Below, in pieces: positions 3,438 to 21,713 of a DNA stretch of 32,000 bases. The notes under the pieces were generated by a model. That model saw nothing but the letters and a program-made list of their open reading frames with translations, was not told the origin of the DNA and ran no database searches. Positions within the stretch are counted from its first letter, which is position 1; the number at the start of each line of letters is the position of its first letter. The stretch spans positions 1,830,001-1,862,000 of the forward strand of contig NZ_AP028907.1 of assembly GCF_036323395.1 (NCBI RefSeq), in the 5' to 3' direction. Source of the DNA: Pyrodictium abyssi. Lineage in GTDB: Archaea; Thermoproteota; Thermoprotei_A; Sulfolobales; Pyrodictiaceae. Made by a program: the position numbers and the translations under genes.

Positions 3438-4430
3438 CTACTCCCCGGAGCCTTCTCCGCCGCTCTGCCCCTCTTCGTCGGCCACTTCGGCTATCTCGAC
3501 TGATTCCTCGTGCTCCCTGTGGGGCGCTGGCTGCAGCTCTGCCGCCCCTTCGGCTGCCTCCTCGGTTTTCTCTGTCCTTAGCTCCTCCTCCATCTTTGCG
3601 CGGTATGGTAGTACCATGTCTTCAAGCGCCTTGTGGTATATACTAGCCTTGTTGACAGCTATAGCCACAGCTGATAGTACTTCGCGGTACTCTAGGTCGC
3701 CCATACCGGTCTTCTGGATGCCCGCTATCCGGCCGTCATCGCTGACTGCCACGACCATTCTCGTATCTGCTACCTGCTCTTCCTCGTAGGTCGGGTCTAC
3801 TACGAGCTTTCCAGCTATCTTCGCAAGGGTTACGGTGACTACGCGGCGATTCACCGGGACTACTCTGGTGAACCTACTACGGTCGACCCGGTACCCGTCC
3901 TCGGTCTTAACGGCTACTGGCAGCCTAGCTGATAGGAGGGCAGCCATAGCCGCCAGCATGGATGCATCGAAGAGGTTACCGTCATGGTTAAGCACGTATA
4001 TGTCCACGAATAGGCGCCACACGTGCTTACCGGGCTCCAGGACAAGCTGGTCTAGTGCTACAGCCTTTATCTCGCGAAGGCTCCTATCTATCACGCGTGC
4101 CAGCTCTATAGCGTTCTCGTCCGGTGGGCCGGGCTCGAAGGTAGGCGAGGCCAGTGGCACGAACTCTGCGTGGACTACGAGTACACCCTCGTTAGGCGTA
4201 TCGGGGAATGGGGCCACTATGTCGGTCTTAACACCCGCCAGCACAATAGTCTGCCCTAGTCTGACTAGTGCTGAGCCCTCGGCGCGCTCTATGTAGCCGG
4301 GCACTATCTCTATCTTTCTTACCTCGTCTAGCTTCCGGCCATCTAGCCGGACACCACGCGATAGTAGCGTCTCCATAGTGTAGCGCTTTAGCTTCGGCAC
4401 CACAGGCTGGAATGAGGGCGTAATGCTCAC
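3438..4430 (-). CDS. rrp42: Exosome complex component Rrp42 (RNase PH-like, inactive subunit) with acidic C-terminal tail
   Basis: 330 aa with an RNase PH fold pattern ([39 protein letters not shown]...). GTG start overlaps the rrp41 stop (GTGA at 4427-4430). The last ~55 aa are Glu-rich and low-complexity. Confidence 0.92.
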
Positions 4431-5197
4431 TGCTCACCACCCTCCTGGACTACCTCTACATACTTCCTACGGAGCGCCTCCTTCTGCAGCTTGTATATGG
4501 TCTGGATGCCCTTACGCGCAAGCTCCATCGCTTGTACAAACTCATCGTGGGTCAATACACCGTTAAGCTGGAGGAGGAGCACCTTGCCTAGGTTAGGCGC
4601 CATAGCCACTGGCATATCCGCTTCCGCGTAATTATCCTCTATCTCATCTATATCAAGCACTAGCACACCGTCCACCTTACCAACTGCGACACCCGCTACT
4701 AGGTCGCGCATAGCTATCCCAGCATCCGCGAGTGCTAGGCTCGCTGCTGTTATAGCAGCAGTCCGTGTACCCCCATCGGACTGGAGCACCTCCATATACA
4801 CGTCGATTGCTGTACGGGGAAACAGCTCTGTGAGCACGACCGCCTCTAGGGCCTCGCGGATGACCTTGGACAGCTCGACCTCTCTACGTGTAGGTGCAGG
4901 CGTCTTACGCTCCGCAGTAGAGAATGGCGCCATGTGGTACCTGCATCTTATGACAGCCCGGTCTGGCAGCGCCATGTGGCGTGGATGCGCCTCACGGGGA
5001 CCATAGACTGCGGCTAGTACACGAGTCCCGCCGTACTCTACCAGCGCGGAGCCATCTGCGTTGCTTAGTACGCCCACCTCCATGCGTATGGGCCGTAGCT
5101 GCGCCGCCAGCCTACCATCGTGGCGTATCGCTACCTTCTGGCCGTCACGCTCCTCCCAGCGTATAAGGACCGGCTTCTCGCCTGCTCCACCGCCCAA
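4427..5197 (-). CDS. rrp41: Exosome complex exonuclease Rrp41 (RNase PH-like catalytic subunit)
   Basis: 256 aa. [45 protein letters not shown]...[21 protein letters not shown]. Confidence 0.95.
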
Positions 5198-5200
5198 GAC

Positions 5201-5923
5201 TTACACACCTCTACGTGCCTTCTCCCTGCGTATAAACTCACGCACTCTCTCAGTGAGCCCTGTCGTGTGAGCTTCTGCTTCTATCTTCTTTATAGAGAGA
5301 ACAACTATCTCTTCCAGGTCCTTATTGGGACAGTTCACGAGTATACGGCCATTCTGGCCCACAACTATCTCGCAACCAGACTCGTTCATCAACATGTTTA
5401 CCATTGAACCCTTCTTGCCTATGACCCGGGGTATCCGGCTAGGCTTTATCTCGACTATAGAACCCTCGACGATCCTGCCCAGACCCTTGCCTTTGATCGT
5501 TAGGAGCGGGTCCCGTGCACGGTCGAAAGCGACAACCTTGGCCACTATATAGTCGCCTACATCCAGGTATTTCTTGAGACTGTCTACCGCTGGGTTAAAC
5601 GGCCTATCGAGGACCTCCTGTATAGTGAGAATCCCTTTGTAAGGGGAGGCGATATCCACCTCCCAGTGCGTTAGCCCAATGTCCTTTACAAGCCCTATCA
5701 CTATGTCGCCTGGCTTTGGTATGTAGGCGCCCTCAAGTGGTATTATGCTTATCTTGTACTTACCGTTCTCGAGCTGCTGGACGTTTACAAGACCCGTTAT
5801 CGTCGCGTAGTACTGGTTGCCCTTACGCTCTATGAAGGGCGACTCAACTACTATGTCGTTGCCTTCAGCTATGATATCTCCCGGTAAAACTATTGACCTG
5901 GATTGTACGTGTATACGCGCCAA
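5201..5923 (-). CDS. rrp4: Exosome RNA-binding subunit Rrp4 (S1 + KH domains)
   Basis: 240 aa. S1-like region (PKPGDIVIGLVKDIGLTHWEVDI) and KH region (IPRVIGKKGSMVNMLMNESGCEIVVGQNGRILV). Apparent TTG start. Confidence 0.93.
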   Translation of the reverse strand: MARIHVQSRSIVLPGDIIAEGNDIVVESPFIERKGNQYYATITGLVNVQQLENGKYKISIIPLEGAYIPKPGDIVIGLVKDIGLTHWEVDIASPYKGILTIQEVLDRPFNPAVDSLKKYLDVGDYIVAKVVAFDRARDPLLTIKGKGLGRIVEGSIVEIKPSRIPRVIGKKGSMVNMLMNESGCEIVVGQNGRILVNCPNKDLEEIVVLSIKKIEAEAHTTGLTERVREFIRREKARRGV

Positions 5924-5929
5924 CCCCGA

Positions 5930-6643
5930 TTACACCACGCTCACGACTTTAACGTCAACATTGCCCCGGGTAAGCTTATTGAGCTTATCCATGACTTCTT
6001 GCTGTAGGCCAGCCGGTATCTCTAGCTCAGCCACGAGGCTGCCATCGCTACGCCAGTCCATATGTTTTACCTCCCCAAGCTTGGAGAGCGCGCCAGCCAC
6101 CCGCCCGGAATACTCTGCAGGTACTACAATACGGAGCAGCGCTTTCGCCAACTTTATGGGGATTATGCGGCTGATTGCACGTATTATCTGCGGCGCCTGC
6201 TCTTCAACACTCTTAAACGGGTCTACACCGACACCAGCTTGCTCCATAGCAGCTTCTATCCTTGCAGGTGGTATAGGAAGCTTAGTCTTCGGATCAATCG
6301 CGTTACGAGCTATGTAGTTTATAAGCTGCCTACGCTTAGCCTCGATGAGCTTTCTACGCTGCTCAGCAGTAAGCTGCAGCTCTCCACGCCTCACTATCTC
6401 AGCGACAATCTTGACTACGTCGTCTGTGCCGAATACCCGGCGGAGAAGCTCGGGGGAGGCGCGGAGCCCCCGCCGAAGGTCAGTGTATACAGCGTCGCTA
6501 ATGACGAGATCCTCCAGGTTCACATCCCTGCCCTGCTTATAGTCAAAAGCAAGGTCAGGGTTTACGAGTACTTCGAACCTCTTGCCCCCTACCTCTAGCC
6601 TCGCAACCACGGGCTCGTGCTCGCCCTTGCTTCGGCGCGGCAT
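5930..6643 (-). CDS. SBDS-family ribosome maturation protein (Sdo1)
   Basis: 237 aa. VVARLEVGGKRFEVLVNPDLAFDYKQG...VYTDLRRG is a typical SBDS N-terminal FYSH domain. Conserved position between psmA and rrp4. Confidence 0.9.
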   Translation of the reverse strand: MPRRSKGEHEPVVARLEVGGKRFEVLVNPDLAFDYKQGRDVNLEDLVISDAVYTDLRRGLRASPELLRRVFGTDDVVKIVAEIVRRGELQLTAEQRRKLIEAKRRQLINYIARNAIDPKTKLPIPPARIEAAMEQAGVGVDPFKSVEEQAPQIIRAISRIIPIKLAKALLRIVVPAEYSGRVAGALSKLGEVKHMDWRSDGSLVAELEIPAGLQQEVMDKLNKLTRGNVDVKVVSVV

Positions 6644-6648
6644 ACCTG

Positions 6649-7380
6649 CTAGGCACCAAGTTTTTCTAGGAACTTTTGGAGCTCCTCTTTAGACAGTTTT
6701 CTGAATTTCTGCGTCTCGGAGTCAACTATGCCTACCTCTAGCGTCTCAGTCGTAGGCTTGCCCTCCATGACCGAAGCGACCGCCTTCATTCCAAGCAGTA
6801 TCGCGTCCTCTAGCTTCATGTCGTCGCGGTACTCTCTCTGCAGCACCTCTATCGCCTGGCCACCGCCCTGCCCTAGGCCGTGAGCCTTGTAGCTTATGTA
6901 CTGGCCGCTTGGCTCAGCAACGTATAGTTTAGGCCCAGTGTCATCCACGCCAGCTATCATGAGGGTTACGCCGAAGGGGCGGACACCGCCATGCTGCGTG
7001 TAGACCTGCATCAGGTCGCATATCTGGCGGGTCAGGTACTCTACAGGTATCGGCTCCCCGTAGACGAACCTGTACTGTACCGCTAGGAGCCTAGCATAGT
7101 CTATCAGTATGCGTCCGTCGCTGCCGAACCCGACGAAGCCTGCACCTATATGACCATCCACCATGTAGACCTTCTCTAGCTGGCTAATGTCTATTAGTGG
7201 GCTTGTCTTCCTCTTCTCCGCTACTATAACCACACCATCCACTGCGCGGACCCCGACCATGGTCCAGCCGCGCTTGGCAGCCTCCATGGCGTACTCTACT
7301 TGGAAGAGACGGCCGTCCGGCGAGAACATCGACGTAGAACGGTCATACCCCATCATCGCTGGCGGTGCGGGGAACGACAC
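6649..7380 (-). CDS. psmA: Proteasome subunit alpha
   Basis: 243 aa. GYDRSTSMFSPDGRLFQVEYAMEAAKRG is the alpha-subunit signature. The longest ORF starts at GTG 7380; an ATG (MMGYDRS) at 7356 is equally plausible. Confidence 0.96.
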   Translation of the reverse strand: MSFPAPPAMMGYDRSTSMFSPDGRLFQVEYAMEAAKRGWTMVGVRAVDGVVIVAEKRKTSPLIDISQLEKVYMVDGHIGAGFVGFGSDGRILIDYARLLAVQYRFVYGEPIPVEYLTRQICDLMQVYTQHGGVRPFGVTLMIAGVDDTGPKLYVAEPSGQYISYKAHGLGQGGGQAIEVLQREYRDDMKLEDAILLGMKAVASVMEGKPTTETLEVGIVDSETQKFRKLSKEELQKFLEKLGA

Positions 7381-7433: not shown

Positions 7434-7471
7434 GCCTTATCTGAGCCACAATAACCAGCTGGAATACGCAT

Positions 7472-7731
7472 GGGCCGGTGAAGAAGAGTCCGAAAACCGA
7501 GAACCGGAGAGAATGGCTATGCGGAGTCTTCTCGCCCCAGAGGCCCGCTTCTCCACGATGAGCGCCAAGGCGCCGCGAAACCCGGATAACCTTCTCCTGC
7601 TCTCTAGTGCTCTAATCGGGCCTCTCGGGTGCCACCGGGCCCCAGACAGCCCCGAAGCCCTGGGGCTGTGGCCTGGGGATGAAGGGGCTCTGCGCGCCGG
7701 AACAACCATACCCTGGCGCTTATTCTTGACC
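7472..7731 (+). ncRNA. Candidate structured non-coding RNA, family unassigned (weak RNase P RNA CR-I/CR-V-like motifs)
   Basis: No credible ORF on either strand. Strong helices: 7482-7492 with 7522-7532 (10/11 bp), extended by 7477-7480 with 7533-7536 and 7472-7476 with 7542-7546. A perfect 9-bp alternative pairs 7539-7547 with 7617-7625. A 14-bp hairpin spans 7640-7678 and a 7-bp hairpin spans 7694-7719. RNase P-like strings: GAAGAGUCCG (7483-7492), GAUGAAGGGGC (7678-7688), GGCGCUUAU (7715-7723). Strand and ends are uncertain. Confidence 0.35.
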
Positions 7732-7773
7732 TCTATACCTAGGGCTACATGATGGAGGAACGGGATAAGCGCT

Positions 7774-7831
7774 GTGATGAGCGCGTCCTTCGTGTAGAGC
7801 AAAGGCGATGACTTGGAGGCCCCATTACTGA
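7774..7831 (+). ncRNA. Weak C/D-box sRNA candidate
   Basis: Canonical C box GUGAUGA (7774-7780) and D box CUGA (7828-7831), 58 nt overall. Internal C'-like CGAUGAC (7806-7812). No clean D' box, a 15-nt C'-D spacer instead of ~12, and only a 2-bp terminal stem. Confidence 0.2.
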
Positions 7832-7864
7832 GCATACTGCATTGACGCTGGAGGGGCGTTAGGC

Positions 7865-8527
7865 ATGCCTGCTGGCATCGAGAGAAGGGTTGTACAAGCG
7901 CTTCGGAGGCTGACTAGGAGGCGTAGCTGTGTCTCCGTGGCCGAGCTAGCTGCAGAGGCGCGTCTCACGCCAAGCGATGTACATAGAGCGCTAGAGGTGC
8001 TTGAGCACAGGAAGCTGGTAGTCGTCTCAGGCGACAAGGTTTGCTATATAGGCGGCGCGCTGGATGAGCAGGCTCATGTTATTGGGCGGGAGCTGCGCCG
8101 TGTACTGGACGAGGCCAGGTCTAGAAGGAGTATAGTAGCCTCCGTCTACGAGGTGGAGCGTAGCCCATTACGAGTCGTGGTTATAGTGAGGCGGGATGGG
8201 GTTGTTTTTGCTGTCCTTCCCGTGACTGGTAGGGAGCCTGCTGAACGGCTAGTAGGTTTAGCTAGAAGGCTTGCCCGGCTAGCCCGCCGCATAGCAGAGC
8301 AAGGCTGCAACGAGTTCTGCGTAGACCGCATTACTCCCCGGCTGGTTGTTCCCGTGCTAGCGTCTGACTATGGCGCGCCAAGGCTCATAGAGGGTGTCTT
8401 GTTCCGGCCCGCAAGGGGCCTACTCAACCTCATAATCGAGCCTGGGGCTGCGCTTTCTGACCCGTTTGTCCGTGTCTATGAATGCAACCGTCAAGCTAGA
8501 CGAGAGGAATCTCAATATATCGAGTAG
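7865..8527 (+). CDS. Hypothetical protein with N-terminal winged-helix DNA-binding domain
   Basis: 220-aa ORF with an ATG start. The N-terminus (VVQALRRLTRRRSCVSVAELAAEARLTPSDVHRALEVLEHRKLVVVSGDKVCYI) looks like a MarR/TrmB-type wHTH. I do not recognise the ~150-aa C-terminal domain. The 3' end overlaps thiI convergently by 32 nt. Confidence 0.6.
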   Translation: MPAGIERRVVQALRRLTRRRSCVSVAELAAEARLTPSDVHRALEVLEHRKLVVVSGDKVCYIGGALDEQAHVIGRELRRVLDEARSRRSIVASVYEVERSPLRVVVIVRRDGVVFAVLPVTGREPAERLVGLARRLARLARRIAEQGCNEFCVDRITPRLVVPVLASDYGAPRLIEGVLFRPARGLLNLIIEPGAALSDPFVRVYECNRQARREESQYIE

Positions 8528-9662
8528 CTGTTAGCTCTACTATACCCTCTATCTTCGCGTACTCCCTAGCCAGCTTATCCGGGTCAGCGCGTGTAGCGAC
8601 AAGCCCGCGCGCCAACTGACAGTACTCCTTAGTCCTGGCAGCCTCCTCGTAGACTCCTATACGCCTTGTAAGAGATACTATCTCCTCCTTATCGAGCCCA
8701 GCTAGAGGCCTTATCAGCGGAACCTTTAGCGGATGCGCCCTTGCAAGAGCATAGAGGTTCTTCAGCGTCTGGCTCGAGACTTGGCCCACGCTTTCGCCCG
8801 TGTATACGGCGTCATAGCCCATTGCTAGAGCGAACTTCTCTGCCACAACATACATCGCTAGCCTTAGGACTATCTGCGCATAGCTATTATCGACCATACC
8901 TGCTATAGCAGCCGTGACCGGGCGGAAGTCGAAAACATAGAGCCTCGGACGGTAGCCGTAGAGCCAGAGCCTGGCAAGCTTCTTGCCTACACGTAGAGCA
9001 TCTGCTATCGAGAGTGGCGAGGCTAGCACGTAGTGTACTAGGTCTACCTCGATACCCCTCTTTGCAGCCATCCAGGCTGCTGCCGGCGAGTCGAGGCCGC
9101 CAGAAAACAATACTATAGCTCTACCCTCAACACCTATTGGCAGGCCGTCGGGGCCTCGGCGCATCTCCCGGTATACATAGGCTTTACCACCCCTAATCTC
9201 GACGAATACTTCTACTTCCGGGTTCTCCAGGTCCACACCAGCAGAGAGAGGGTAGAGAGCCGCTCCAATCACGCGTGCAGCATCGAGACTCGTAAACTCT
9301 TCAACTCCGCTCCTTCTGGCACGCACTGCGAACTTCTTGCCACGGACCCACTCGCCTGCTATTTCCTTTACACGCTCTGCTAGGTCATCTAGACTCTTGT
9401 ACCTCACTAGGTGGGCTACAGTAGCGCCATGTATCCCGAAGACCCTGGACAGTGTGTCCACGGCCTTCTCCAACGCATCATAGTTTCTACAGCCCGACAC
9501 GTACAGCCTAGCCGCTTCTATCCATACATCACTGCATTCTACACCTTCGCGCCTAAAAGCGTCAACAATGTTCTTTACGAGCCGCCGCTCGAAACGCGGT
9601 CTCGTGCGGTCCGACTTGAGTACGATCTCTCCCGCGATACTCGCGAGCACTACCGTGTCCAT
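8496..9662 (-). CDS. thiI: tRNA 4-thiouridine / thiamine sulfur transferase ThiI (THUMP + PP-loop, no rhodanese domain)
   Basis: 388 aa. N-terminal ferredoxin-like/THUMP region, PP-loop VLFSGGLDSPAAAW, and TGESVGQVSSQT motif. It ends ~90 aa short of rhodanese-containing bacterial ThiI. Confidence 0.9.
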   Translation of the reverse strand: MDTVVLASIAGEIVLKSDRTRPRFERRLVKNIVDAFRREGVECSDVWIEAARLYVSGCRNYDALEKAVDTLSRVFGIHGATVAHLVRYKSLDDLAERVKEIAGEWVRGKKFAVRARRSGVEEFTSLDAARVIGAALYPLSAGVDLENPEVEVFVEIRGGKAYVYREMRRGPDGLPIGVEGRAIVLFSGGLDSPAAAWMAAKRGIEVDLVHYVLASPLSIADALRVGKKLARLWLYGYRPRLYVFDFRPVTAAIAGMVDNSYAQIVLRLAMYVVAEKFALAMGYDAVYTGESVGQVSSQTLKNLYALARAHPLKVPLIRPLAGLDKEEIVSLTRRIGVYEEAARTKEYCQLARGLVATRADPDKLAREYAKIEGIVELTATRYIEIPLV

Positions 9663-9722
9663 ACTGCCCCCGGGTCCTAGTCCGGAGGCCTAGAGCCCCT
9701 TCTTTACTTGACCTAGGCCAGC

Positions 9723-10529
9723 CTAGCCGCATTTACAGTCCTTGCGCGGCCTAAGCTCTATCTTCATTATATCCATTGTGTAGGCGTCCACCACTATCAT
9801 TTTGCCCTTATTTACTTCACCCATGCCGGTTACTAGCTTCATGAGCTCTGTCACAGCTATAGAGCCTACTAGGGCTACAATGGGGCCTACAGCTGGTATC
9901 TTTGAGGGAGACTTCAGCGAAGAGGGGAGGAGGCAGCGGAGGCACGGCGTCTCGCCGGGTATCACTACCACTACTTGCCCCTCGAACCCGTATATTCCTG
10001 CATGTATGTAGGGCTTGCCAGCCCTGTACGCGGCCTCGTCTAGAAGGAATCGCGTCTCCCAGTTGTCCAGCCCATCAATTACTATGTCTACCTGCCTAAC
10101 CAGCTTATCCACATTATCCTCTGTTATCCTCTCAGTAACCGGAACTATCTCGACATTGGGGTTAAGGCGCCGAAGCTTCTCCGCAGCCGAGATAGGCTTT
10201 GGCTTACCTATATCGTCGGTCCAGTGGAGGATTTGGCGGTTTAGATTAGTCTCCTCAACAGTGTCCCCGTCGACGAGTACGAGTTTACCGACACCGAGTG
10301 CGGTAAGGTACAACGCCTCGAATGAGCCGAGGCCTCCTACTCCCGCCACCAAGACGCTAGTCTTTTTCAGCTTCTTCTGTCCCTCGGTCCCGAAGAGGAG
10401 GAGCTGGCGTTCATACCGCAGTAGCTCGGCAGGTGTAAGCTCAACATTATCCAGTGAGCGTTCACTCATACCGTATCCTCTCCTCCATGCAGTTTGTATC
10501 GCGTCTGGTGCACTGCATGACAAGGGCAC
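9723..10529 (-). CDS. ThiF/MoeB/HesA-family E1-like adenylyltransferase
   Basis: 268 aa. RYERQLLLFG, Rossmann loop VLVAGVGGLGS, and zinc site CLRC ... CKCG. The longest ORF starts at GTG 10529; ATG (MSERSL) at 10469 is the likelier start. Confidence 0.88.
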   Translation of the reverse strand: MPLSCSAPDAIQTAWRRGYGMSERSLDNVELTPAELLRYERQLLLFGTEGQKKLKKTSVLVAGVGGLGSFEALYLTALGVGKLVLVDGDTVEETNLNRQILHWTDDIGKPKPISAAEKLRRLNPNVEIVPVTERITEDNVDKLVRQVDIVIDGLDNWETRFLLDEAAYRAGKPYIHAGIYGFEGQVVVVIPGETPCLRCLLPSSLKSPSKIPAVGPIVALVGSIAVTELMKLVTGMGEVNKGKMIVVDAYTMDIMKIELRPRKDCKCG

Positions 10530-10782: not shown

Positions 10783-11538
10783 GTGGTTGCCTCCTATTTT
10801 ACTCCCCCTGGGCTCTGCTTTCACTGTCCTGGGGCCAGGCTAGTGGAGACTAGATGGCTTAAGCTGCTGAGTAACCAGACACGTATAGGCGTCGTGATAC
10901 AGCCAATAGCTTCAATAGAGAATCATGGCGTACTACCCCTAGGCGCTGACCTGCTGATAGCAGACTGCACCATGAGGAGACTAGAACTCCCAGAGGAAGC
11001 AGTCATAGCACCAGCCATACCTTATTCCACCGCAGCCGAGCACACTGGCTTCCGCGTCTCTATCAGCCCGCAGACTTTCGTACAGTACCTTGTAGAAGTT
11101 GGCTCGTCTATCCTATCGAATGTCAACGCATTGCTGTTTGTGGTCTTCCACGGTGGAGCCTATCACGCTACATACCTCGCTGCTAGAATTCTGCGTTCAA
11201 AGGGCTACGAGGTATACCTCTTCAACTTCTGGGACACCGTTACACGGGCTCTAGGGCTGGAGGGCATGCTTATACACGCCGACTGTATTGAGGCTAGTAT
11301 CCTGCTAGCGTGCGGCTATACACAAGGAATCCGCGAAGCAGAGAGAATAGATTCAAGCTGTACGCGTAGGGCGCCACCGTACCAGCCCTGGGTTTCCCGG
11401 GATATACCAGGCATGTACCCGGTAGACCCCGTGCTAGCGTCGAGGCCTCTTGGCGAGAAGCTTCTACAAACCGCTACCGAGCAGCTAAGAAGGCTTGTAG
11501 ACTTGATCTTGGAGCGGCAGAAAGCCTCTTCACAATAG
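10783..11538 (+). CDS. arfB: Creatininase-fold amidohydrolase, probable FAPy deformylase ArfB (2-amino-5-formylamino-6-ribosylaminopyrimidin-4(3H)-one 5'-phosphate deformylase)
   Basis: 251 aa with creatininase-family ligand motifs ENHGVLPLGADLLIA, FHGGAYH and IHADCIEAS. It is embedded in the riboflavin cluster. GTG start at 10783 is uncertain; a later GTG near 10843 is possible. Confidence 0.7.
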   Translation: MVASYFTPPGLCFHCPGARLVETRWLKLLSNQTRIGVVIQPIASIENHGVLPLGADLLIADCTMRRLELPEEAVIAPAIPYSTAAEHTGFRVSISPQTFVQYLVEVGSSILSNVNALLFVVFHGGAYHATYLAARILRSKGYEVYLFNFWDTVTRALGLEGMLIHADCIEASILLACGYTQGIREAERIDSSCTRRAPPYQPWVSRDIPGMYPVDPVLASRPLGEKLLQTATEQLRRLVDLILERQKASSQ

Positions 11539-12586
11539 ATACTATCGGGGAGCTGCTCCAGCCTATCTCTGGAATCTCTGCCGCCAGCAGCCTATCTACG
11601 GGTACACCTTCGCCGACCACTGCTCCGTCGAGGCGTAGCAGCTTTGTACAGCTTATCGTAGCCGCCTTTAGCAATGCTCTAGCCAGAGCCTCCGCTTTAT
11701 CCCGGTTATCTCTATGCACAGCCATATAGGCGAACATTATTTCCTCGTCAATGTATGGTGGTATCCACGCCGCGTTATCCGTGCCTATACCGACTAGCGT
11801 CTTCTCGAGAAGCTCTGGGAGCAAGCTAAGCGGGGGCAGTCTCCCTAAATGGTACATGTTCGATCTTGGACAGTATACTAGGCCTATACCTGATTCAGCC
11901 AGTTCTATTAGCTCGTCTTTGCCGAGGTATGTTAGGTGTATAGCCGCCGTTGGGGCTGCCCCGAGTACTACCTCGTAGTCTCTGGACTGGTACAGCTCGA
12001 GGGTCTCGGATACGTGTACGTGTACATGCCCGCCGATCTGCCTAGCGTGGGCCACCAGTTTGTTTAGCTCCCTTGGGTTTAGGTCAAATACGGTATCGAG
12101 GCCCACGCCTTTAGCCTCGTCTAGCAGTTGGAGATACTCGCTAAGGTTCTTTGCGAGTGGTTGGCCTAGTATCCTTGCAGCTACTCCGGCGCGCGCCATG
12201 CCATCGCTTACTAGCTGTAATCCCTTTCTACCTAGCTCCGCGTATACTCCAGCGTAGAGTACTCCTCTCCTCTTCATGTGTGCTGCTGCCGTGGCTACCC
12301 TTCTTGCTAGCTCGTCGCTGCTTAGCTGGGAGAGTAGCCTGTACTTGAGCCCCGTGGGTAGTGCTACAAGATCGTGGAGTGGGAGAGTCTCTCCCGCCTC
12401 GGCTATGGAGATGTCGAGAATGTGTAGGTGAGCATTGCAAAGAGCTGGGAGGATTACCAGCCCTAGGAGCACTCTCCTGGAGGGGCTACACCCCCTTCCT
12501 ACGCCCTTCACACGCTGTTCGTCGTCAATGTCTATGCACGGTCTATGCACTGGTTCTAGTTCCTCGCCTACAAGAGCCGCGAGCAC
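11474..12586 (-). CDS. Amidohydrolase-superfamily deaminase-like protein (TRZ/ATZ, cytosine/guanine/MTA deaminase type)
   Basis: Motifs LPALCNAHLHILD (HxH), GGHVHVHVSETLE (His + catalytic Glu), AIHLTYL (His) and GIGTDNAAW (Asp). The track ORF runs to 12700 but overlaps ribH by 98 nt. I trim it to GTG 12586, 16 nt after the ribH TAA, which matches where family N-termini begin. The 3' end overlaps arfB convergently. Confidence 0.8.
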   Translation of the reverse strand: MLAALVGEELEPVHRPCIDIDDEQRVKGVGRGCSPSRRVLLGLVILPALCNAHLHILDISIAEAGETLPLHDLVALPTGLKYRLLSQLSSDELARRVATAAAHMKRRGVLYAGVYAELGRKGLQLVSDGMARAGVAARILGQPLAKNLSEYLQLLDEAKGVGLDTVFDLNPRELNKLVAHARQIGGHVHVHVSETLELYQSRDYEVVLGAAPTAAIHLTYLGKDELIELAESGIGLVYCPRSNMYHLGRLPPLSLLPELLEKTLVGIGTDNAAWIPPYIDEEIMFAYMAVHRDNRDKAEALARALLKAATISCTKLLRLDGAVVGEGVPVDRLLAAEIPEIGWSSSPIVSIVKRLSAAPRSSLQAFLAAR

Positions 12587-12602
12587 TTCTATCTGTATGC
12601 TC

Positions 12603-13070
12603 TTACTCGATGTAGACTGTTTCTCCTTCGAACTTTGCTTCTTCAATAGCTCGGAGCCTCCTTGCCAACTTAACAGCCGCCTCGACAGACCTGCGGGCAT
12701 AGTCGTCTACGCGCTCGAGTGCCTGCATACGGTTCATCCCTGGCCCCGATATTCCGAGGGTTACGGGCTTACCATACTTCTCGGCTAGGTCTACTAGTTT
12801 TCTCGCCACCTGGTGGGCTATCACCTCGTCGTGCTTGGTAGCGCCGGTTATTATGGCTCCTAGCGCCACGACGGCGTCGACGTCGTCCTTGCGTAGTAGT
12901 TTCTCTACGAGTAGTGGTATGTCGTAAGCACCTGGCGCCCTTACCACGTATGTAACGGTGGCTCCTAGGAATTTGGCGTGGCTTAGGGCACGCTGGAGCA
13001 TAAGGTAGGTTACATCATGGTTGAACTCTGATACCACTATTGCGAGACGTATGCCTTCGCCTGCTGCCAC
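12603..13070 (-). CDS. ribH: 6,7-dimethyl-8-ribityllumazine synthase
   Basis: 155 aa. [22 protein letters not shown]...[18 protein letters not shown]...[19 protein letters not shown]. Confidence 0.95.
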
Positions 13071-13164: not shown

Positions 13165-13632
13165 CTATGGCTCTATAGGGCCGGCGTCAGGGTAGCCCTG
13201 CCTCCTCCCGGTCCCAGCGCGTGTTGACAGCACTTCCGGCCGGTATAGTAGTAGGTAGAGGTTCTCTGCGTGTTTTCTAGCACGGTCTACCGCTATACGG
13301 TAGAGCTCCTCCTCGCTATCAGCCTCGTCCTCGTGCACTGTCACATCTATTATGTGGCGCTCGAGTTCCAGCTGTACTAGCTGCATGGCGAGACTATAGA
13401 CTGCGTAGCTTATCTTGTCGGTCATTGACCTGCCTATCCACCCCAGCACCATGCCAGCATCGCAGCCCTCCTCCTTCATGAGCTTCTTTATAGCCACGGG
13501 TATGTCCTTTATCCCTGGTACTGTACGCCTCACTATCTGCGCGCTAGGCATCAATGTGAGGATAGCGTCTATAGCATGGCTGGCCATGTCGACTCTAGCA
13601 AAGGTTGTATCTACAATACAAATCTTCACCAA
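13165..13632 (-). CDS. ribC: Riboflavin synthase, archaeal type
   Basis: 155 aa. KICIVDTTFARVDMASHAIDAI is the hallmark N-terminus of the archaeal lumazine-synthase-like riboflavin synthase. TTG or GTG start overlaps the ribB 3' end. Confidence 0.9.
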   Translation of the reverse strand: MVKICIVDTTFARVDMASHAIDAILTLMPSAQIVRRTVPGIKDIPVAIKKLMKEEGCDAGMVLGWIGRSMTDKISYAVYSLAMQLVQLELERHIIDVTVHEDEADSEEELYRIAVDRARKHAENLYLLLYRPEVLSTRAGTGRRQGYPDAGPIEP

Positions 13633-14302
13633 GCCTTTCCACCCTATCGATTATCTCGCTACCCTCGACCAAGGGGTAGCCCTTTTCCCTAGATACCCTT
13701 CTCGCGTCCTCGATGCTTAGCGCATCTCCCTTCGAAAGCATCTCGACAATAACAGTTGACGGTGTCATCCCCGCTAGTATAGCTAGGTGCAGCGAGAGCT
13801 CTGTATGTCCCTTTCTATCGCTTAGACGGCGCCCAAGCAGTATCGGCACATGGCCTGGTGCTACGAAGTTTTCCTGGAAGTAGCTACGCGCCTTCTCTAC
13901 GTCGTCGTTCACAATCATCGTTAATACTTTGTCGAGCTCTCTTATAGTGGTGGCACGGTCTGCGTCACGTATCCCCGTTTTTACATGGACGCTGTTAACC
14001 CATAGAGAGAATGCTGGTTTGTCGCCGTAGCCTAGTGTCTTGCTAGTAAGTGGGGCTAGTTCTGGTATTGTTGATAGTATCTCGTAGCCGTATCTAAGCC
14101 CTATGAGTCTCCCAGCTGGCTGGGGCATCGCATAGCATATGAGGCCTCCTGCGAGTGTACGCATTTCGTAGACTCGCTCAGCTGTGACCATGGAGGCGTG
14201 GATAACGTAGTCTACCTCGTTCTCACGCCCAGCCGCGTCATATATTAGGACGGGTATTCCTTTGCGGAACGCCTCTATTGCTTTTTCTAGCTGACTGCTC
14301 AA
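13595..14302 (-). CDS. ribB: 3,4-dihydroxy-2-butanone 4-phosphate synthase
   Basis: 235 aa. IEAFRKGIPVLIYDAAGRENEVDYVIHASMVT...RKGHTELSLHLAILAGMTPSTVIVEM. Confidence 0.95.
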   Translation of the reverse strand: MSSQLEKAIEAFRKGIPVLIYDAAGRENEVDYVIHASMVTAERVYEMRTLAGGLICYAMPQPAGRLIGLRYGYEILSTIPELAPLTSKTLGYGDKPAFSLWVNSVHVKTGIRDADRATTIRELDKVLTMIVNDDVEKARSYFQENFVAPGHVPILLGRRLSDRKGHTELSLHLAILAGMTPSTVIVEMLSKGDALSIEDARRVSREKGYPLVEGSEIIDRVERLGEDLYCRYNLC

Positions 14303-14443: not shown

Positions 14444-15157
14444 TTAGTAGGCTGCAGTTTCTACCCCACGTCTATCAATGTATACTTGGCTATTTCTAGT
14501 ACTCCTTATGACTGATAACGCGTGGGCTGCCCGCGCCAACGCTGCGCGAGGGTTATCATCAACACCTATACCTATCTTGTACTTCTCACCGCCTATTGCA
14601 GCCATAACTAGTTCTAGGGCCTTATCGAGATCCTCCTCCGGGGCAAAGACTACAATATTGTCGCCGCCAAGGTAGCCTGGTATGTAGCCTCTTGGGAGGG
14701 CATCCTCTACGAGCTTAATGTAGAGATTCATCACCTGGATGAAGGGCTTGAGGAAGCCCTTCTCTAGTCTCTCCTTGCTGACCATATCCAGGTCGATGTG
14801 AAGGGCTGCTACGCCGCTCTCGTCGTACTCGTCTATAGTTATGCCTGGCTCTAGAGGTACCTGCCACCAGTCTGAATGTCTCGTCGTTGTCACCCTCATT
14901 GCTACCGGTACGGGGGACTCACGGCTCACAGCTCTATATATCTCCTCAATGCTTTTTCTCGGAACACCGTTCAACAATGCCACCATTATGTCATGGCTGA
15001 ACGGGGCTACGTATCCTCCACCAGCCGCCGCGGCATCTATCGCTGCAAGGTATACAGCTGACTGCCGTTTCTGGATTATCCATTCCCTATCATGGCCTAT
15101 CTCTTCCGTCCACTCGCGGTAGCCTACTAGAGCTATGATGCCCACCAGCAGAGCCAT
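14444..15157 (-). CDS. arfA: GTP cyclohydrolase III
   Basis: Collinear by eye with the archaeal GCH III layout: N-terminal MALLVGIIALVGYREWT, LHIDLD, GGDNIVVF and KIGIGV motifs. The track ORF extends to 15325 but overlaps arfC. I trim it to ATG 15157, which has GGAGGG 7 nt upstream (ATG 15172 is an alternative). Confidence 0.85.
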   Translation of the reverse strand: MALLVGIIALVGYREWTEEIGHDREWIIQKRQSAVYLAAIDAAAAGGGYVAPFSHDIMVALLNGVPRKSIEEIYRAVSRESPVPVAMRVTTTRHSDWWQVPLEPGITIDEYDESGVAALHIDLDMVSKERLEKGFLKPFIQVMNLYIKLVEDALPRGYIPGYLGGDNIVVFAPEEDLDKALELVMAAIGGEKYKIGIGVDDNPRAALARAAHALSVIRSTRNSQVYIDRRGVETAAY

Positions 15158-15183
15158 AGTTCGTCCCTCCATACCAGCGCCTA

Positions 15184-15954
15184 TTATGCGGCCTCCTTGC
15201 TGGCTTTCTCCATGAGAGCTGCTATTCTCTCGGAGAGGCATGGCTCGGCGTAGGGACCGGTAGCCGGGGGGCAACAGGTAGATTCTACGCGGTAGGCTAC
15301 GTGTACACAGTTGCCGCAGGGGCACTTCTCAAGACATATGAGTCTTAGTCGCGGGGACTGGCTGGTTGTAGTGAACCCTGTAGCCCCGGGATCCTCCACC
15401 ACGCTTCTTCCAGCCGCGAAGATGTATGGGGTGTATGTTACCCGTATCTCGTCTACGAGCCCGGCTCTAAGCATGTTATAGTTTAGTATCCCACCTCCCT
15501 CTATGAGTAGCCGCTTTATGCCATATTCCACGACTAGTATCTCCATGGCCTTGGCGAGGTCTACTACACCGTTCTCGCCAACTACGTGTACGTGGACTCC
15601 CCTGGCCTTTAGACGCTCAATCTTCTCGTCATCGTGCACCGCTGTAAACACTATGACGAGTGGGCCGGGTTCATTTACGAGGCGTAGTCTTTCGTGTAGC
15701 CGCAGTTTACCATCTACTACTACACGGTAGTACTTACTACTGCTAGGGTTCAGTCTTCTCCGGAGCGAGGGGTTATCTATCAGGACCGTGGAGGCGCCGA
15801 CCATTACTGCTTCAGCGGCACCTCTTAGCAGTCTGAGCCTTGCGAGGTCATAGCTGCAGCTCAGCATGCTGTACCGAGTAGAGGACGCTATTCTCCCATC
15901 AAGTGTAGCTGTGGAGAATATTATTGTGTATGGCCGCGCCGCTGGCCTTGTCAA
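15184..15954 (-). CDS. arfC: 2,5-diamino-6-ribosylamino-4(3H)-pyrimidinone 5'-phosphate reductase (RibD C-terminal-type domain only), Cys-rich C-terminus
   Basis: 256 aa. PYTIIFSTATLDGRIAS...VMVGASTVLIDNPSL...LLIEGGGILN is the RibD_C reductase pattern. There is no cytidine-deaminase-like domain. TTG start overlaps the Pop5 stop (TTGA). Confidence 0.88.
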   Translation of the reverse strand: MTRPAARPYTIIFSTATLDGRIASSTRYSMLSCSYDLARLRLLRGAAEAVMVGASTVLIDNPSLRRRLNPSSSKYYRVVVDGKLRLHERLRLVNEPGPLVIVFTAVHDDEKIERLKARGVHVHVVGENGVVDLAKAMEILVVEYGIKRLLIEGGGILNYNMLRAGLVDEIRVTYTPYIFAAGRSVVEDPGATGFTTTSQSPRLRLICLEKCPCGNCVHVAYRVESTCCPPATGPYAEPCLSERIAALMEKASKEAA

Positions 15955-16502
15955 GGCAGTCTCCGCCTGGCGACGGCTAGTGCGCGTTTAGCCCTCTTTA
16001 TAGTGCCACTCGTCCGTACCGGGATTATAACAGCGCGTTTATCGCCGATACGCCTTACTAGCCCTAGGGCAGCTAGAACGAGATACTTTGTATCATGCGA
16101 GGCGCGTAGTATGCCAGCCGCTCTCTCCGGGTCATAGTACACTAGCTGTAGACGGGCTAGCGCTACCGTTAGTTGCCCAGCTAGCCTCTCAGTGGCCCGT
16201 ATTATTGCACGTTCTACCTCCTGCGGCGAGGGTGGTTGTTCTCCCTCGTAGACTACTATGAAGGCTATGTAGCGGCGCCGTCTACGTCTACGCAGCTTCT
16301 CTAGGAACTCTTCCGCATCAATGCTCTGGAGCGCGTAACCTGCCGCCTTTAGGACTCTACCCATTTCCCCGGCTAGGCTGTTTAGCCGCTTCTCTAGACT
16401 CTCTATGCGCCTCTCAAGCATTCTTCTGTTGTAGATGTCCCAAGCCATGTAGCCAGCGAGGCCGGCGGCTAGCGCTGCTAGTACAGCTGTCTCCAGCTGC
16501 AA
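15951..16502 (-). CDS. rnp2: RNase P protein component 2 (Pop5/Rpp14) with ~70-aa N-terminal hydrophobic + coiled-coil extension
   Basis: The C-terminal ~110 aa (RYIAFIVVYEGE...AIIRATERLAGQLTVALARLQLVYYDPERAAGILRASHDTKYLVLAALGLV...IIPVRTSGTIKRAKR) fit Pop5. TTG start lies 2 nt after the Rpp30 stop. The N-terminus LETAVLAALAAGLAGYMAW is followed by heptad-like RRMLERRIESLEKRLNSLAGEM. Confidence 0.8.
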   Translation of the reverse strand: MQLETAVLAALAAGLAGYMAWDIYNRRMLERRIESLEKRLNSLAGEMGRVLKAAGYALQSIDAEEFLEKLRRRRRRRYIAFIVVYEGEQPPSPQEVERAIIRATERLAGQLTVALARLQLVYYDPERAAGILRASHDTKYLVLAALGLVRRIGDKRAVIIPVRTSGTIKRAKRALAVARRRLP

Positions 16503-16504
16503 TT

Positions 16505-17173
16505 CTAGTCCGCCTCCCCGTTCTGGCTATGGTATCGTGCCTTGGTATTAACTATGGCAGCTGGGTAGCCCGTTATAGCGAGTTTCGCGATGGTCTCAGG
16601 GAGCCCGAAAGCCACCAACATAGCCTGTACTGTCCGGGGGTGCCACATCTCCCACCTGGTTCTAGCACCGCTAGTCACGACTAGCGGGGCCTCGTACGCC
16701 GCTGCCCGCCTCGCAATTATCATTGTGCCGCGGAGGCTGGAGCGGGGGTCGCCGCCGTAGAGCAGTGGCAGGAAGCGTATCTCGACTGCTGCTCCGCCCT
16801 CTCGTAGCATTGCTGTCTGGCTCTTATCCATGTACCTGGCCATGCCGGGTGGTAGCACTATTAGCCCGACGCGGGGGTCTCTTGCAGCTAGCCTAGCAGC
16901 CTCAGCAGACTTAGGCTTTACAGCTACTAGGTCAAAGCTTAGGGCTACTCGCTTCAGTATGTTGACAGTCTTACCCCAGGACTCGGCCTCTATGGTTACA
17001 CGTGTTAGAGCCTCAATACCCTCTTCTGTGAACACTCTTGCGTATTCGCGTGCGCGCTGTGGGTCACTATTCTCTACTGCTACGAGCCTATACCCCATTA
17101 TCTTTGCGAGCGAGGCCATCTCCATAGCGTCTCGGAGGCTACGTGGCTCAAGTGCTAGGTCAATGAACTTCAA
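16505..17173 (-). CDS. rnp3: RNase P protein component 3 (Rpp30)
   Basis: 222 aa with an Rpp30/PHP-like TIM-barrel pattern (MKFIDLAL...GYRLVAVEN...FDLVAVKP...VEIRFLPLL...APLVVTSGA). TTG start overlaps the upstream stop (TTGA). Confidence 0.85.
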   Translation of the reverse strand: MKFIDLALEPRSLRDAMEMASLAKIMGYRLVAVENSDPQRAREYARVFTEEGIEALTRVTIEAESWGKTVNILKRVALSFDLVAVKPKSAEAARLAARDPRVGLIVLPPGMARYMDKSQTAMLREGGAAVEIRFLPLLYGGDPRSSLRGTMIIARRAAAYEAPLVVTSGARTRWEMWHPRTVQAMLVAFGLPETIAKLAITGYPAAIVNTKARYHSQNGEAD

Positions 17174-17625
17174 GACACGAGCCCCAATTCCTTGAGAACC
17201 TTTATGGCTTTTTCGAGGCGCGGAGTCCCCCTAAGGTTGATCATTACATGGATAACGTCGTCTCCATCGTAGAACCTTAGTTCGCCTAGGAAGGCGTCCT
17301 GCTTGCTGAACCTTAGGTAGAACCTGCCCTGTTTTGCATCGTACCGGTTTTCAAGCATCATAGCAATGATCTTCTTGCTCTCCTTGTCAAGCTTCTCTGC
17401 AAGCCCACGTACAAACTCCTCTGCAGCTCCGCCTTCGAGCCTGACCATTATCCTCGTTATCGGGTTATTGTAGTGCCCCTCTAGAGTGTGGATTGTGAAC
17501 TCCACCTTGCTGTGAAGCGCCTCTGGTATGATGTTGAGTATTGCTTGCTTAACTCTGTCCACATCCTCGGTGGCGTGTGCATGAGCAGCTATCTCTACCC
17601 TTATGACCTTGCTAGGCATAGGCAT
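17170..17625 (-). CDS. DUF54/COG1325 RNA-binding protein (predicted exosome-associated subunit)
   Basis: 151 aa. VEIAAHAHATEDVDRVKQAILNIIP...IHTLEGHYNNPITRIMVRLEG. It holds the conserved position directly upstream of Rpp30 in the archaeal superoperon. ATG start with GGTGAGGGGG upstream. Confidence 0.75.
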   Translation of the reverse strand: MPMPSKVIRVEIAAHAHATEDVDRVKQAILNIIPEALHSKVEFTIHTLEGHYNNPITRIMVRLEGGAAEEFVRGLAEKLDKESKKIIAMMLENRYDAKQGRFYLRFSKQDAFLGELRFYDGDDVIHVMINLRGTPRLEKAIKVLKELGLVS

Positions 17626-17927
17626 AGGTTTCTACCCCCTCACCGATATGTGGTTGCCTGGCCTAGCTGTGTTCCCCAGTGCTGCGTCCGGCCAGGCCAT
17701 CATGGGCTGCCAAGCTTTCTTCAAGCCCGCTACTCTCGGAAGAACTGTTTATCCATAAAATTCTTCAAGAAGCCTCGCCATGTTTGCAGTCAAGGGTTTC
17801 CTATATGCCCGGTGTGCACAGTACAACCTCTAAGGTGCTATGTAGAACATCTACAATTATACCGGCAGAGTATGTTGCCGGGTAGCAGGAAGAGGAAATG
17901 CCCTGTGTTGACTGCCGGTCTAACGTC

Positions 17928-17932
17928 AAAAA
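17928..17932 (-). terminator. Oligo-T (T5) terminator candidate after L15e
   Basis: Minus strand reads GCTCCTAGTTTTTGACG ~39 nt downstream of the L15e stop (17971-17973). Confidence 0.4.
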
Positions 17933-17970
17933 CTAGGAGCTAGAGAACCGTAGATAGTGTTGGGTAGGTG

Positions 17971-18651
17971 TTACTGTAGGTCGCCGTGGTGGTACTTTTC
18001 GCGTATCTCGTCTGGCGCAATGAGGCGGGCGCCGCGGTGGGCCTCGTGGCGCTTCTTGAGCTTGCGCTCCTTCTGCTTCTTCTTCCACTTGTACTTGTGC
18101 GTGCCGCGTAGGCCGCGTGTCTTCCTTAGGCCGCGCATCTTCTTGCCAGCGCTTGTTAGGCCGCGGAATACGCGGCCACGGTGCTGCTTCTCGCATATCC
18201 AGCCCAGGTCCTTGTCCCTGCACACAGCGGGGTGGCTGCGGTCTACCAGTATGACCTCGTACCACTTGTACTCGCCGTCCTCGGCCACGTAGTAGCTGTT
18301 GAGCACCTCCATGTTCGGGTACTTTCTGGCTGCACGCTCCTCAGCTATCAGCCTTGTGGATTTCGCGGGCGCGTAGCCGTAGACACCCATCCTCTTGGGG
18401 CGGCGGCCCTTGTTTGGCCTTGGCCTGTTTAGGCCACCCTTGCGTACCCGTACCCGGACTACTATGATGCCCTGCTTGGCCTTGTAACCAAGGCTGCGAG
18501 CACGGTCAATGCGCGTCGGCTTCTCGATGCGGACCACACTTGGCTGACGACGCCACTCCATTAGACGGCGCTTCCACAGCTGTACTAGCTCGGGTACCTC
18601 GTGGCGCTGCTTCCACGTCTCTCTAAGATAGTGGTATAGACCGCGTGCCAT
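17971..18651 (-). CDS. rpl15e: 50S ribosomal protein L15e
   Basis: 226 aa. [15 protein letters not shown]...[33 protein letters not shown]...GLTSAGKK. Confidence 0.96.
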
Positions 18652-20864: not shown

Positions 20865-21713
20865 GTGGAGCGCTATACCGGGGTGCCAGCGTTGCACATT
20901 GACCACGTGTGCAGAGCCATCTGGTCATTTATAACGCGTCTCAGCGAGGGCGCACGAAGGCTGTTCCTCCGCGGCGTCGCCGAGCTAGTGAAGCGTAACG
21001 ACGTTGCAGCCCTTTACCACTATGCCACTATGATAGAGGAGCACGCCTACATGGATAGCCCAGATGTCGCCTGGCCTGGGTTCTTCAAGCAGTATGACTG
21101 CCTTGACCATGTAGAGTTGCCGAAGCCTCCCGAGCAGAGCGGTGTTGATGTTTTCTCCGCTATAAGGCTGCGTAGGAGCCGGAGAAGCTACAGCTCCGAG
21201 CCACTTGACCTGCATGAAGTCTCAGCCGTACTCTACCATGCTGCAGGCATACGTGGATGGGATGGTGATTGGCCCCTTAGGGTCTATCCTAGCGCTGGGG
21301 GCCTGCAGCCGGTAGAAGTCTACCTAGCTGCTGACCGCATAGATGGCGTTGAGCGCGGGCTTTACCACTATAATCCTCTTAACCATTCTCTATGTTTGCT
21401 TAGAAATGGGCGTTACATGGATACGCTTTCCGCCATAGCTCTAGGCCAGGACCATGTTGCCAAGGCTCCAGCTGCGCTGGTGATGACAGCCGTCTATTCT
21501 AGGACAGCTAGCAAGTATGCTGCCCGTTCCTACCGCTATGTCCACCTAGACGCTGGGACCGTTGTCCAGAACGTGTACCTGGCCGCGGAGGCAATGGGCT
21601 TGGCTACTGTGGTTGTTGGCGCCTTCTATGACGAGGAGTTGTGTAGGCTTCTAGGCATAGACTGCTACAACGAGATACCGGTAGCCATAATGCCTATCGG
21701 AAAGAGGTTATGA
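20865..21713 (+). CDS. SagB/ThcOx-type nitroreductase-fold (FMN) oxidoreductase
   Basis: 282 aa. IRLRRSRRSYSSEPLDLHEVSAVLYHAAGI...YPSAGGLQPVEVYL...YRYVHLDAGTVVQNVYLAAEAMGL. The GTG start is uncertain. Confidence 0.75.
   Translation: MERYTGVPALHIDHVCRAIWSFITRLSEGARRLFLRGVAELVKRNDVAALYHYATMIEEHAYMDSPDVAWPGFFKQYDCLDHVELPKPPEQSGVDVFSAIRLRRSRRSYSSEPLDLHEVSAVLYHAAGIRGWDGDWPLRVYPSAGGLQPVEVYLAADRIDGVERGLYHYNPLNHSLCLLRNGRYMDTLSAIALGQDHVAKAPAALVMTAVYSRTASKYAARSYRYVHLDAGTVVQNVYLAAEAMGLATVVVGAFYDEELCRLLGIDCYNEIPVAIMPIGKRL

Follow-up and report, generated by a model that had tools for sequence, protein, structure and literature searches.

A gene in the riboflavin cluster of Pyrodictium abyssi is likely, with good confidence from its sequence and from the genomic neighbourhoods of its relatives, to encode the deaminase of the ArfC product in the archaeal route to riboflavin and F420. 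It lies on the minus strand, at positions 11474..12646 of a stretch of 32,000 nucleotides (contig NZ_AP028907.1, positions 1,830,001 to 1,862,000), which we call the window, and specifies an amidohydrolase-superfamily deaminase from a divergent branch of the MJ0699/PRK07213 ('PyrD') family. An earlier note, made from the sequence alone, had proposed that this protein deaminates a riboflavin intermediate as a non-orthologous replacement of RibD/Rib2. This is supported, as a predicted function, by the placement of the family, by its genetic linkage, and by its invariant residues. The same note held that the step had no assigned archaeal candidate gene, and this is out of date, as the MJ0699/HVO_2483 'PyrD' family had been proposed before. 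The finding is a correct rediscovery of a prediction from 2010 and 2017 that is already found in some genome annotations.

Pfam recognises the protein only through the generic PF01979 (37 bits). The best NCBIfam model is NF005552 (PRK07213, 'chlorohydrolase'), which aligns residues 5-356 with positions 10-368 of its 382 at 132 bits, about 100 bits ahead of the next model (36 bits). The guanine deaminase model (TIGR02967) gives 19 bits for a cutoff of 375, and the MtaD/DadD models (NF005557, NF012037) did not match the protein at E<=0.001. Placement among the COG0402 subfamilies, which the earlier note had suggested as a check, is thus to NF005552 and not to the MtaD/DadD or guanine deaminases. 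Its label 'TRZ/ATZ-type' holds in that the protein is a COG0402-like deaminase, but it is loose, as this is a separate branch. A word-indexed search returned 19 close homologues, and the wider family was seen only in an exhaustive search with a profile of the window clade, which gave 288 cluster representatives at E<=1e-30. NF005552 was the best amidohydrolase model for all 20 relatives that were sampled, several of which exceeded its cutoff. The profile of the window clade matches a representative from Methanotorris igneus over its full length (6.8e-43). This representative leads to Methanocaldococcus clusters, one of them containing AAB98692.1, i.e., Q58110 (MJ0699), which databases name 'Uncharacterized protein MJ0699' or 'atrazine chlorohydrolase isolog'. 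Another of these clusters has proteins of M. lauensis already named 'Pyrimidine deaminase archaeal predicted'. The orthologue of Methanococcus maripaludis is Q6LXH1. A direct BLASTP comparison between the window protein and MJ0699 gives 31% identity (2e-32). In a rough neighbour-joining tree, the window clade is placed inside the family, with a long branch to the single MtaD-like outgroup, and members linked and unlinked to riboflavin genes are intermixed. By homology, shared residues, and context, the window protein is a member of the MJ0699/PRK07213 family.

The scores on NF005552 separate the members of Thermoproteota (120 bits in P. occultum, 137 in Acidilobaceae, and 162 in a Sulfolobales metagenome-assembled genome, MAG) from those found elsewhere (589 in MJ0699 and 313-370 in thaumarchaeal, korarchaeal, and bathyarchaeal members). 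Judged from these profile scores, the Thermoproteota branch falls outside the curated boundary of NF005552 and yet is clearly homologous to the family. It is because the cutoff of the model is not reached that annotation pipelines name the Pyrodictiaceae proteins just 'amidohydrolase family protein'. Orthologues are found in P. occultum and Hyperthermus butylicus, and the closest genomic matches to the window are contigs of Pyrodictium delaneyi MAGs, with 88-99% amino-acid identity.

The residues expected of a deaminase are all present. The translation contains LCNAHLHILD, HVHVHVSETLE, AAIHLTYLG, and VGIGTDNAAW, so that the four catalytic motifs listed in the earlier note (NAHLH, HVHVSE, IHLTYL, GIGTDNA) are all confirmed. 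There is an HxH after beta-1, a histidine after beta-5 that is followed by HxxE, a histidine after beta-6, and an aspartate after beta-8. In an alignment of 82 sequences of the family, P67, H73, H75, D78, K101, E137, H211, E214, H237, G288, D290, and N291 are invariant, and N71, G99, C259, R261, N263, and R374 are conserved in at least 90% of the sequences (residue numbers are those of the 390-amino-acid protein; subtracting 20 gives the numbering of the earlier note). In the mononuclear deaminases of the amidohydrolase superfamily, the metal ligands occupy the positions of H73/H75, H211, and D290, and the catalytic pair those of E214 (in HxxE) and H237. Structure prediction with AlphaFold2, another of the checks suggested, produced a confident (beta/alpha)8 barrel (predicted local distance difference test, pLDDT, 95.7; predicted template modelling score, pTM, 0.93) where the catalytic residues are at the ends of the strands. 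In this model, K101, R261, R374, D78, and E137 are on the side of the barrel predicted to hold the active site. The Foldseek matches are COG0402-type deaminases, with template modelling (TM) scores of 0.70-0.75 and 15-18% identity, which makes the fold class of the protein certain. Isocytosine deaminase is the top match, and TrzN, AtzA, TM0936, adenosine-type deaminases, and human guanine deaminase are close behind. We did not use this top match as evidence of specificity, because its lead over many other folds is not significant. A single-sequence search of the PDB gave only weak matches (best 2paj, 3e-6), and neither this search nor Foldseek revealed a close relative among solved structures. 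Finally, the profile alignment shows that the segment following the HxH reads HxHxxD...GLK(H/Y)R in the family, versus HxHxxM...W..WP.E in the enzymes acting on methylthioadenosine (MTA), whose substrate-contact residues are not retained. A grouping with deaminases of MTA, S-adenosylhomocysteine (SAH), and 5'-deoxyadenosine or with guanine deaminases, with their contacts kept, had been named as evidence against the hypothesis. The outcome favours the hypothesis, as does that of each of the note's refuting conditions that we examined.

The genetic context of the family points to the pathway. Riboflavin genes directly adjoin the family gene in 20 of the 53 archaeal loci retrieved in a genome scan, and they do so in two arrangements. 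The most frequent, in 13 of the 20, is the Pyrodictiaceae type, arfC-(arfA)-ribB-ribC-ribH-amidohydrolase with a convergent arfB; in the other seven, from Sulfolobales and Desulfurococcaceae MAGs, arfA-ribH is divergent from amidohydrolase-arfC. A Nitrosopumilales genome has ribE-ribB-ribH-arfA-amidohydrolase-arfC with overlapping genes, a korarchaeote has ribB-ribC-ribH-arfC-amidohydrolase, and a bathyarchaeote has amidohydrolase-arfC-cofG-cofH (locus L059, 6001-10278). Taken together, at least five gene orders place relatives next to genes for riboflavin or the F420 precursor, and they come from Thermoproteota, Nitrosopumilales, Korarchaeota, Bathyarchaeota, and Asgard archaea. The linkage to riboflavin genes, whose conservation the earlier note wanted checked, is conserved in several phyla, where it has been rearranged independently, and it is complemented by two gene fusions. 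The first is a Promethearchaeota (Asgard) protein of 636 amino acids with an N-terminal amidohydrolase and a C-terminal RibD_C domain (TIGR01508, 197 bits), i.e., an amidohydrolase-ArfC fusion (GAB4316839.1), whose gene is followed by cofG and cofH (L057, 8001-12193). The second, on 24 contigs, is a protein of 580 amino acids joining a creatininase (ArfB) to the amidohydrolase.

CofG and CofH build the F420 chromophore from 5-amino-6-ribitylaminouracil, which is what the reductase, the deaminase, and a phosphatase would yield when acting in sequence. As read from gene order, the association of amidohydrolase and ArfC with cofG-cofH in the Asgard archaeon and in the bathyarchaeote is a putative dedicated module supplying 5-amino-6-ribitylaminouracil for F420. 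These fusions and the linkage to cofG-cofH may be new support for the old prediction. In the contigs carrying the ArfB-amidohydrolase fusion (L060, L061, 1-13743), the fusion gene is surrounded by very large ORFs (open reading frames) of about 2700, 1025, and 762-770 amino acids and by several smaller ones with no Pfam match, and a second amidohydrolase, of 551 amino acids, is encoded about 4 kb from the fusion.

The predicted reaction can be described by analogy with the superfamily. The substrate would be 2,5-diamino-6-ribitylamino-4(3H)-pyrimidinone 5'-phosphate, the product of ArfC, from which the 2-amino group would be removed to give 5-amino-6-ribitylaminouracil 5'-phosphate, the precursor common to riboflavin and the F420 chromophore. 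The enzyme would be a mononuclear-metal deaminase of the (beta/alpha)8 amidohydrolase fold, with the metal presumably held by H73, H75, H211, and D290. The metal-bound water would be activated by H237 and D290, and E214 of the HxxE motif would protonate the ring nitrogen and the leaving ammonia, E214 and H237 acting as a proton shuttle. Other conserved polar residues (D78, K101, E137, R261, N263, N291, and R374) may form the contacts with the substrate, at its 5-amino group, ribityl chain, and phosphate. The amidohydrolase would be a non-homologous substitute for the domain with the cytidine deaminase fold in bacterial RibD and fungal Rib2. It seems probable to us that the family as a whole is a real and widespread archaeal riboflavin/F420 deaminase, that bifunctional enzymes akin to RibD were reinvented twice by fusion (to ArfC in Asgard archaea, and to ArfB), and that the same activity is present in the Thermoproteota branch, in organisms that grow at very high temperatures.

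The history of the prediction is relevant to these claims. In archaea, reduction occurs before deamination and the RibD-type deaminase domain is absent in most of them (PMC5397151). Osterman et al. 2010 (as cited in PMC5397151) had proposed the same family for the deamination from similar evidence. Rodionova et al. 2017 called the candidate 'PyrD', counted it in 15 RbkR regulons, and described the prediction as still to be tested. Pfeiffer and Dyall-Smith 2021 (PMC8305020) gave HVO_2483 and MJ0699 (Q58110) as candidates and listed them as an open issue awaiting experimental confirmation. We took the identity of 'PyrD' from the latter work and from the presence of MJ0699 (Q58110) in the cluster tables. 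The family corresponds to NF005552 (PRK07213), to the SEED role 'Pyrimidine deaminase archaeal predicted (EC 3.5.4.26)', and to the 'PyrD' of Rodionova et al. 2017. The full-text literature available to mid-2026, a corpus that leaves subscription journals largely outside and includes a 2026 riboflavin review and a 2024 re-annotation of M. jannaschii, yielded no test of its members, whether biochemical or genetic.

A number of observations weigh against the proposed function. The window protein resembles MJ0699/HVO_2483 in its full-length homology, in the catalytic and family-specific invariant residues, and in the linkage to riboflavin genes, and it is because of these shared traits that the same function is predicted. 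It differs in belonging to the divergent Thermoproteota branch, with only about 24-31% identity to euryarchaeal members and a score under the equivalog cutoff of NF005552 (132 versus 294 bits), and the function of the family is itself predicted. Function may have shifted in this branch. The substrate is predicted from context alone, and the Foldseek ranking does not discriminate between isocytosine, MTA, atrazine, and guanine enzymes (all with E of about 1e-15 to 1e-19). Riboflavin neighbours are lacking in about 30 of the 53 scanned loci. The loci of Methanotorris, Methanobacterium, a Thermoplasmatales MAG, and Acidilobaceae have unrelated neighbours and no rib genes. We considered whether a different conserved context of the unlinked copies could point to another function, and dropped the idea because the neighbours in Acidilobaceae (DUF2208, SCP2, thiolase, and phosphoglucomutase) are uninformative. 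Furthermore, the Pfam scan that revealed no cytidine-deaminase-type domain, in keeping with the earlier note, covered 40 ORFs of the window and not the whole genome.

These points leave room for different explanations. The protein could act in the riboflavin/F420 pathway at another step or on another form of the substrate, e.g., on the ribosyl compound ahead of its reduction, which is the order in bacteria, or on the compound once dephosphorylated, or it could be an alternative formamide hydrolase. Gene context indicates membership in a pathway rather than the exact step, and enzymes of the amidohydrolase fold can hydrolyse amides. We nevertheless regard this as unlikely, because the deaminase class is marked by the glutamate of HxxE and the histidine after beta-6, neither of which varies in the family, because ArfB is already encoded in the window and its fusion to the amidohydrolase argues for two distinct activities, and because reduction precedes deamination in M. 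jannaschii (Graupner et al. 2002, as cited in PMC5397151). The gene could also encode a salvage or detoxification deaminase of a purine, pterin, or nucleoside (guanine, 8-oxoguanine, MTA/SAH, or 5'-deoxyadenosine) that just happens to lie beside riboflavin genes, since the structural neighbours include all these enzymes, the TRZ/ATZ, SsnA, and guanine deaminase models of NCBIfam match weakly, and many members of the family lack the linkage. This seems quite improbable: the scores on these models are of 19-36 bits for cutoffs of 375-617, the MtaD/DadD models give no match, and the substrate loop after the HxH is a different one. Chance adjacency cannot explain five gene orders and two fusions, and the neighbours of the unlinked copies in Methanotorris, Methanobacterium, Thermoplasmatales, and Acidilobaceae give no hint of purine or methylthioadenosine salvage. 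Lastly, the low scores on the curated models PF01979 and NF005552 are what one might expect of an inactive or decaying paralogue carried along in the operon. This is hardly credible for a gene with an intact ORF that keeps all the catalytic and family-specific residues, gives a model with such a high pLDDT, and is conserved, with 37-97% identity, in the same position in Pyrodictiaceae and related lineages.

Deamination of the ArfC product thus stands as our preferred function, and the comparison with better known enzymes shows what it would entail. The deaminase domain of RibD/Rib2 has the same predicted type of reaction (hydrolytic loss of the 2-amino group) and the same operon partners, and the Asgard fusion of amidohydrolase and ArfC follows the plan of RibD, a deaminase joined to a reductase. 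The two differ in that the window protein is an amidohydrolase barrel with HxH/H/D ligands, and not a protein of the zinc-dependent cytidine deaminase fold with its H/C-x-E...PCxxC motif. Its expected substrate is the reduced, ribityl form, like that of Rib2, whereas RibD uses the ribosyl form. Guanine deaminase (2uz9, 6ohb), the isocytosine deaminase Vcz (7ww2, 8is4), and 8-oxoguanine deaminase share the fold and the catalytic machinery. Such amidohydrolase-fold enzymes deaminate a 2-amino-4-oxopyrimidine substructure, which is the same chemistry as the proposed step. They differ from the window protein by the low identity (15-18%), by model scores far below the cutoffs, and by the family's own invariant Asp, Lys, Glu, and Arg, which suggest a charged pocket for the ribityl phosphate. 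The MtaD/DadD enzymes (TM0936, MJ1541) are in the same branch of the superfamily, have a similar size, and provide the best PDB profile matches (3lnp, 4dyk, 4f0r, 1p1m), but the segment after beta-strand 1 is replaced, the genomic context differs, and NF005557 and NF012037 are not matched.

Deamination is one of the last steps towards riboflavin and the F420 precursor in Archaea that lack an experimentally proven enzyme. Proof would close a gap in the pathway that has been open since about 2002, correct thousands of annotations as 'chlorohydrolase' or 'amidohydrolase family protein', and document one reaction solved by two unrelated folds. The window brings no new idea to this problem, and what it supplies is a thermostable, operon-embedded member of the family. 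The added value is in the placement within the family of the divergent Thermoproteota branch that is missed by curated models, and in the ArfC and ArfB fusions and the linkage to cofG-cofH, which strengthen the case, the fusions being also convenient constructs for assays.

The start of the gene probably requires a correction. The ORF is open without interruption on the minus strand from an ATG at 12700 to its end at 11474. The earlier note had used the GTG at 12586, for a protein of 370 amino acids, and its statement that the gene starts 16 nt after the ribH stop (12603-12605) is right for that codon. However, the likelier start is the TTG at 12646, from which the gene encodes 390 amino acids and overlaps the 3' end of ribH by 44 nt. 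We regard this start, a shift of 60 nt, as the more probable because there is a GGAGG 10 nt upstream of it, because close homologues are called as genes of 386-392 amino acids, and because the AlphaFold model has a first beta-strand (residues 17-26) that starts four residues ahead of the GTG.

The other members of the cluster are those that the earlier note had listed (ArfA, ArfB, ArfC, RibB, RibH, and archaeal RibC), and matches in Pfam and NCBIfam bear out this list. Directly upstream of the amidohydrolase gene is ribH, encoding 6,7-dimethyl-8-ribityllumazine synthase (12603..13070, minus strand; TIGR00114 146 bits, PF00885 127 bits). It is preceded on the same strand by ribC, for the archaeal pentameric riboflavin synthase (13165..13632; TIGR01506 198 bits, cutoff 100.55), by ribB (13595..14302; NF004437 301 bits, cutoff 262), and by arfA, for GTP cyclohydrolase III (14444..15172; PF05165, GCH_III, 97 bits). 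The ORF of arfA runs to 15325, but as the match to the family begins only at residue 63, its start, judged from this alignment, is probably the ATG at 15172 or at 15157. The diaminopyrimidine nucleotide reductase gene arfC (15184..15954, minus strand) matches PF01872 (RibD_C) at 130 bits and TIGR01508 at 172 bits, just below the cutoff of 186. RibD_C is the sole domain that Pfam finds in it, with no deaminase domain, as the earlier note had also stated. Together with Pop5 (15951-16502, minus strand), these genes form an uninterrupted minus-strand series, Pop5-arfC-arfA-ribB-ribC-ribH-amidohydrolase, and the amidohydrolase gene is probably co-transcribed with arfC-arfA-ribB-ribC-ribH. The gene of the arfB-like creatininase-fold formamide hydrolase (10783..11538, plus strand; PF02633, Creatininase, 99 bits) is convergent with the amidohydrolase gene, and their 3' ends overlap by 65 nt (11474-11538). 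The same convergent arrangement is found in the Pyrodictiaceae loci L002-L011. Hence, arfB is a member of the cluster, but, being on the opposite strand, is on a separate transcript from the amidohydrolase gene. The overlap is similar in the closest relative, a P. delaneyi MAG (L009, about 58 nt), and is replaced by a gap of about 25-80 nt in more distant Pyrodictiaceae loci.

The riboflavin genes are joined directly to a string of RNase P and ribosomal genes (15951-18651) encoding L15e, a PF01877 RNA-binding protein, Rpp30, and Pop5. The start of arfC overlaps the stop of Pop5, and this junction is kept across Pyrodictiaceae loci (L001, L002, L005, L006, L010, and L011), so the riboflavin genes may be transcribed together with these housekeeping RNA-processing genes. 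Directly past arfB, on the minus strand (8496-10529), are genes for a ThiI-like tRNA 4-thiouridine sulfurtransferase and an E1 adenylyltransferase of the ThiF/MoeB/UbaA type, a pair that accompanies the riboflavin cluster in most Pyrodictiaceae loci (L002-L011). Adjoining thiI, thiF, and the cluster, a plus-strand gene (7865-8527) encodes a protein of 220 amino acids with an N-terminal winged helix (IclR, MarR, or HTH_20-like) and about 150 C-terminal residues without family match. We considered it as the riboflavin regulator RbkR and rejected this assignment, because no riboflavin-kinase domain was found in it even at E<=0.1.

The remainder of the window has an ordinary archaeal exosome superoperon (3438-7380, minus strand), with proteasome alpha, SBDS, Rrp4, Rrp41, and Rrp42, which shows that the window is part of the core chromosome. 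Four sizeable ORFs have no Pfam family at E<=0.001 (2265-2915, 30840-31700, and 7437-7835 on the minus strand, and 24201-24944 on the plus strand), and the cysteine-rich C-terminus of the product of 24201-24944 has only a weak metallothionein-like match. Proteins of the nitroreductase family typically depend on flavin mononucleotide, and one is encoded at 20865-21713 (plus strand), with an N-terminal extension of about 100 residues without family match.

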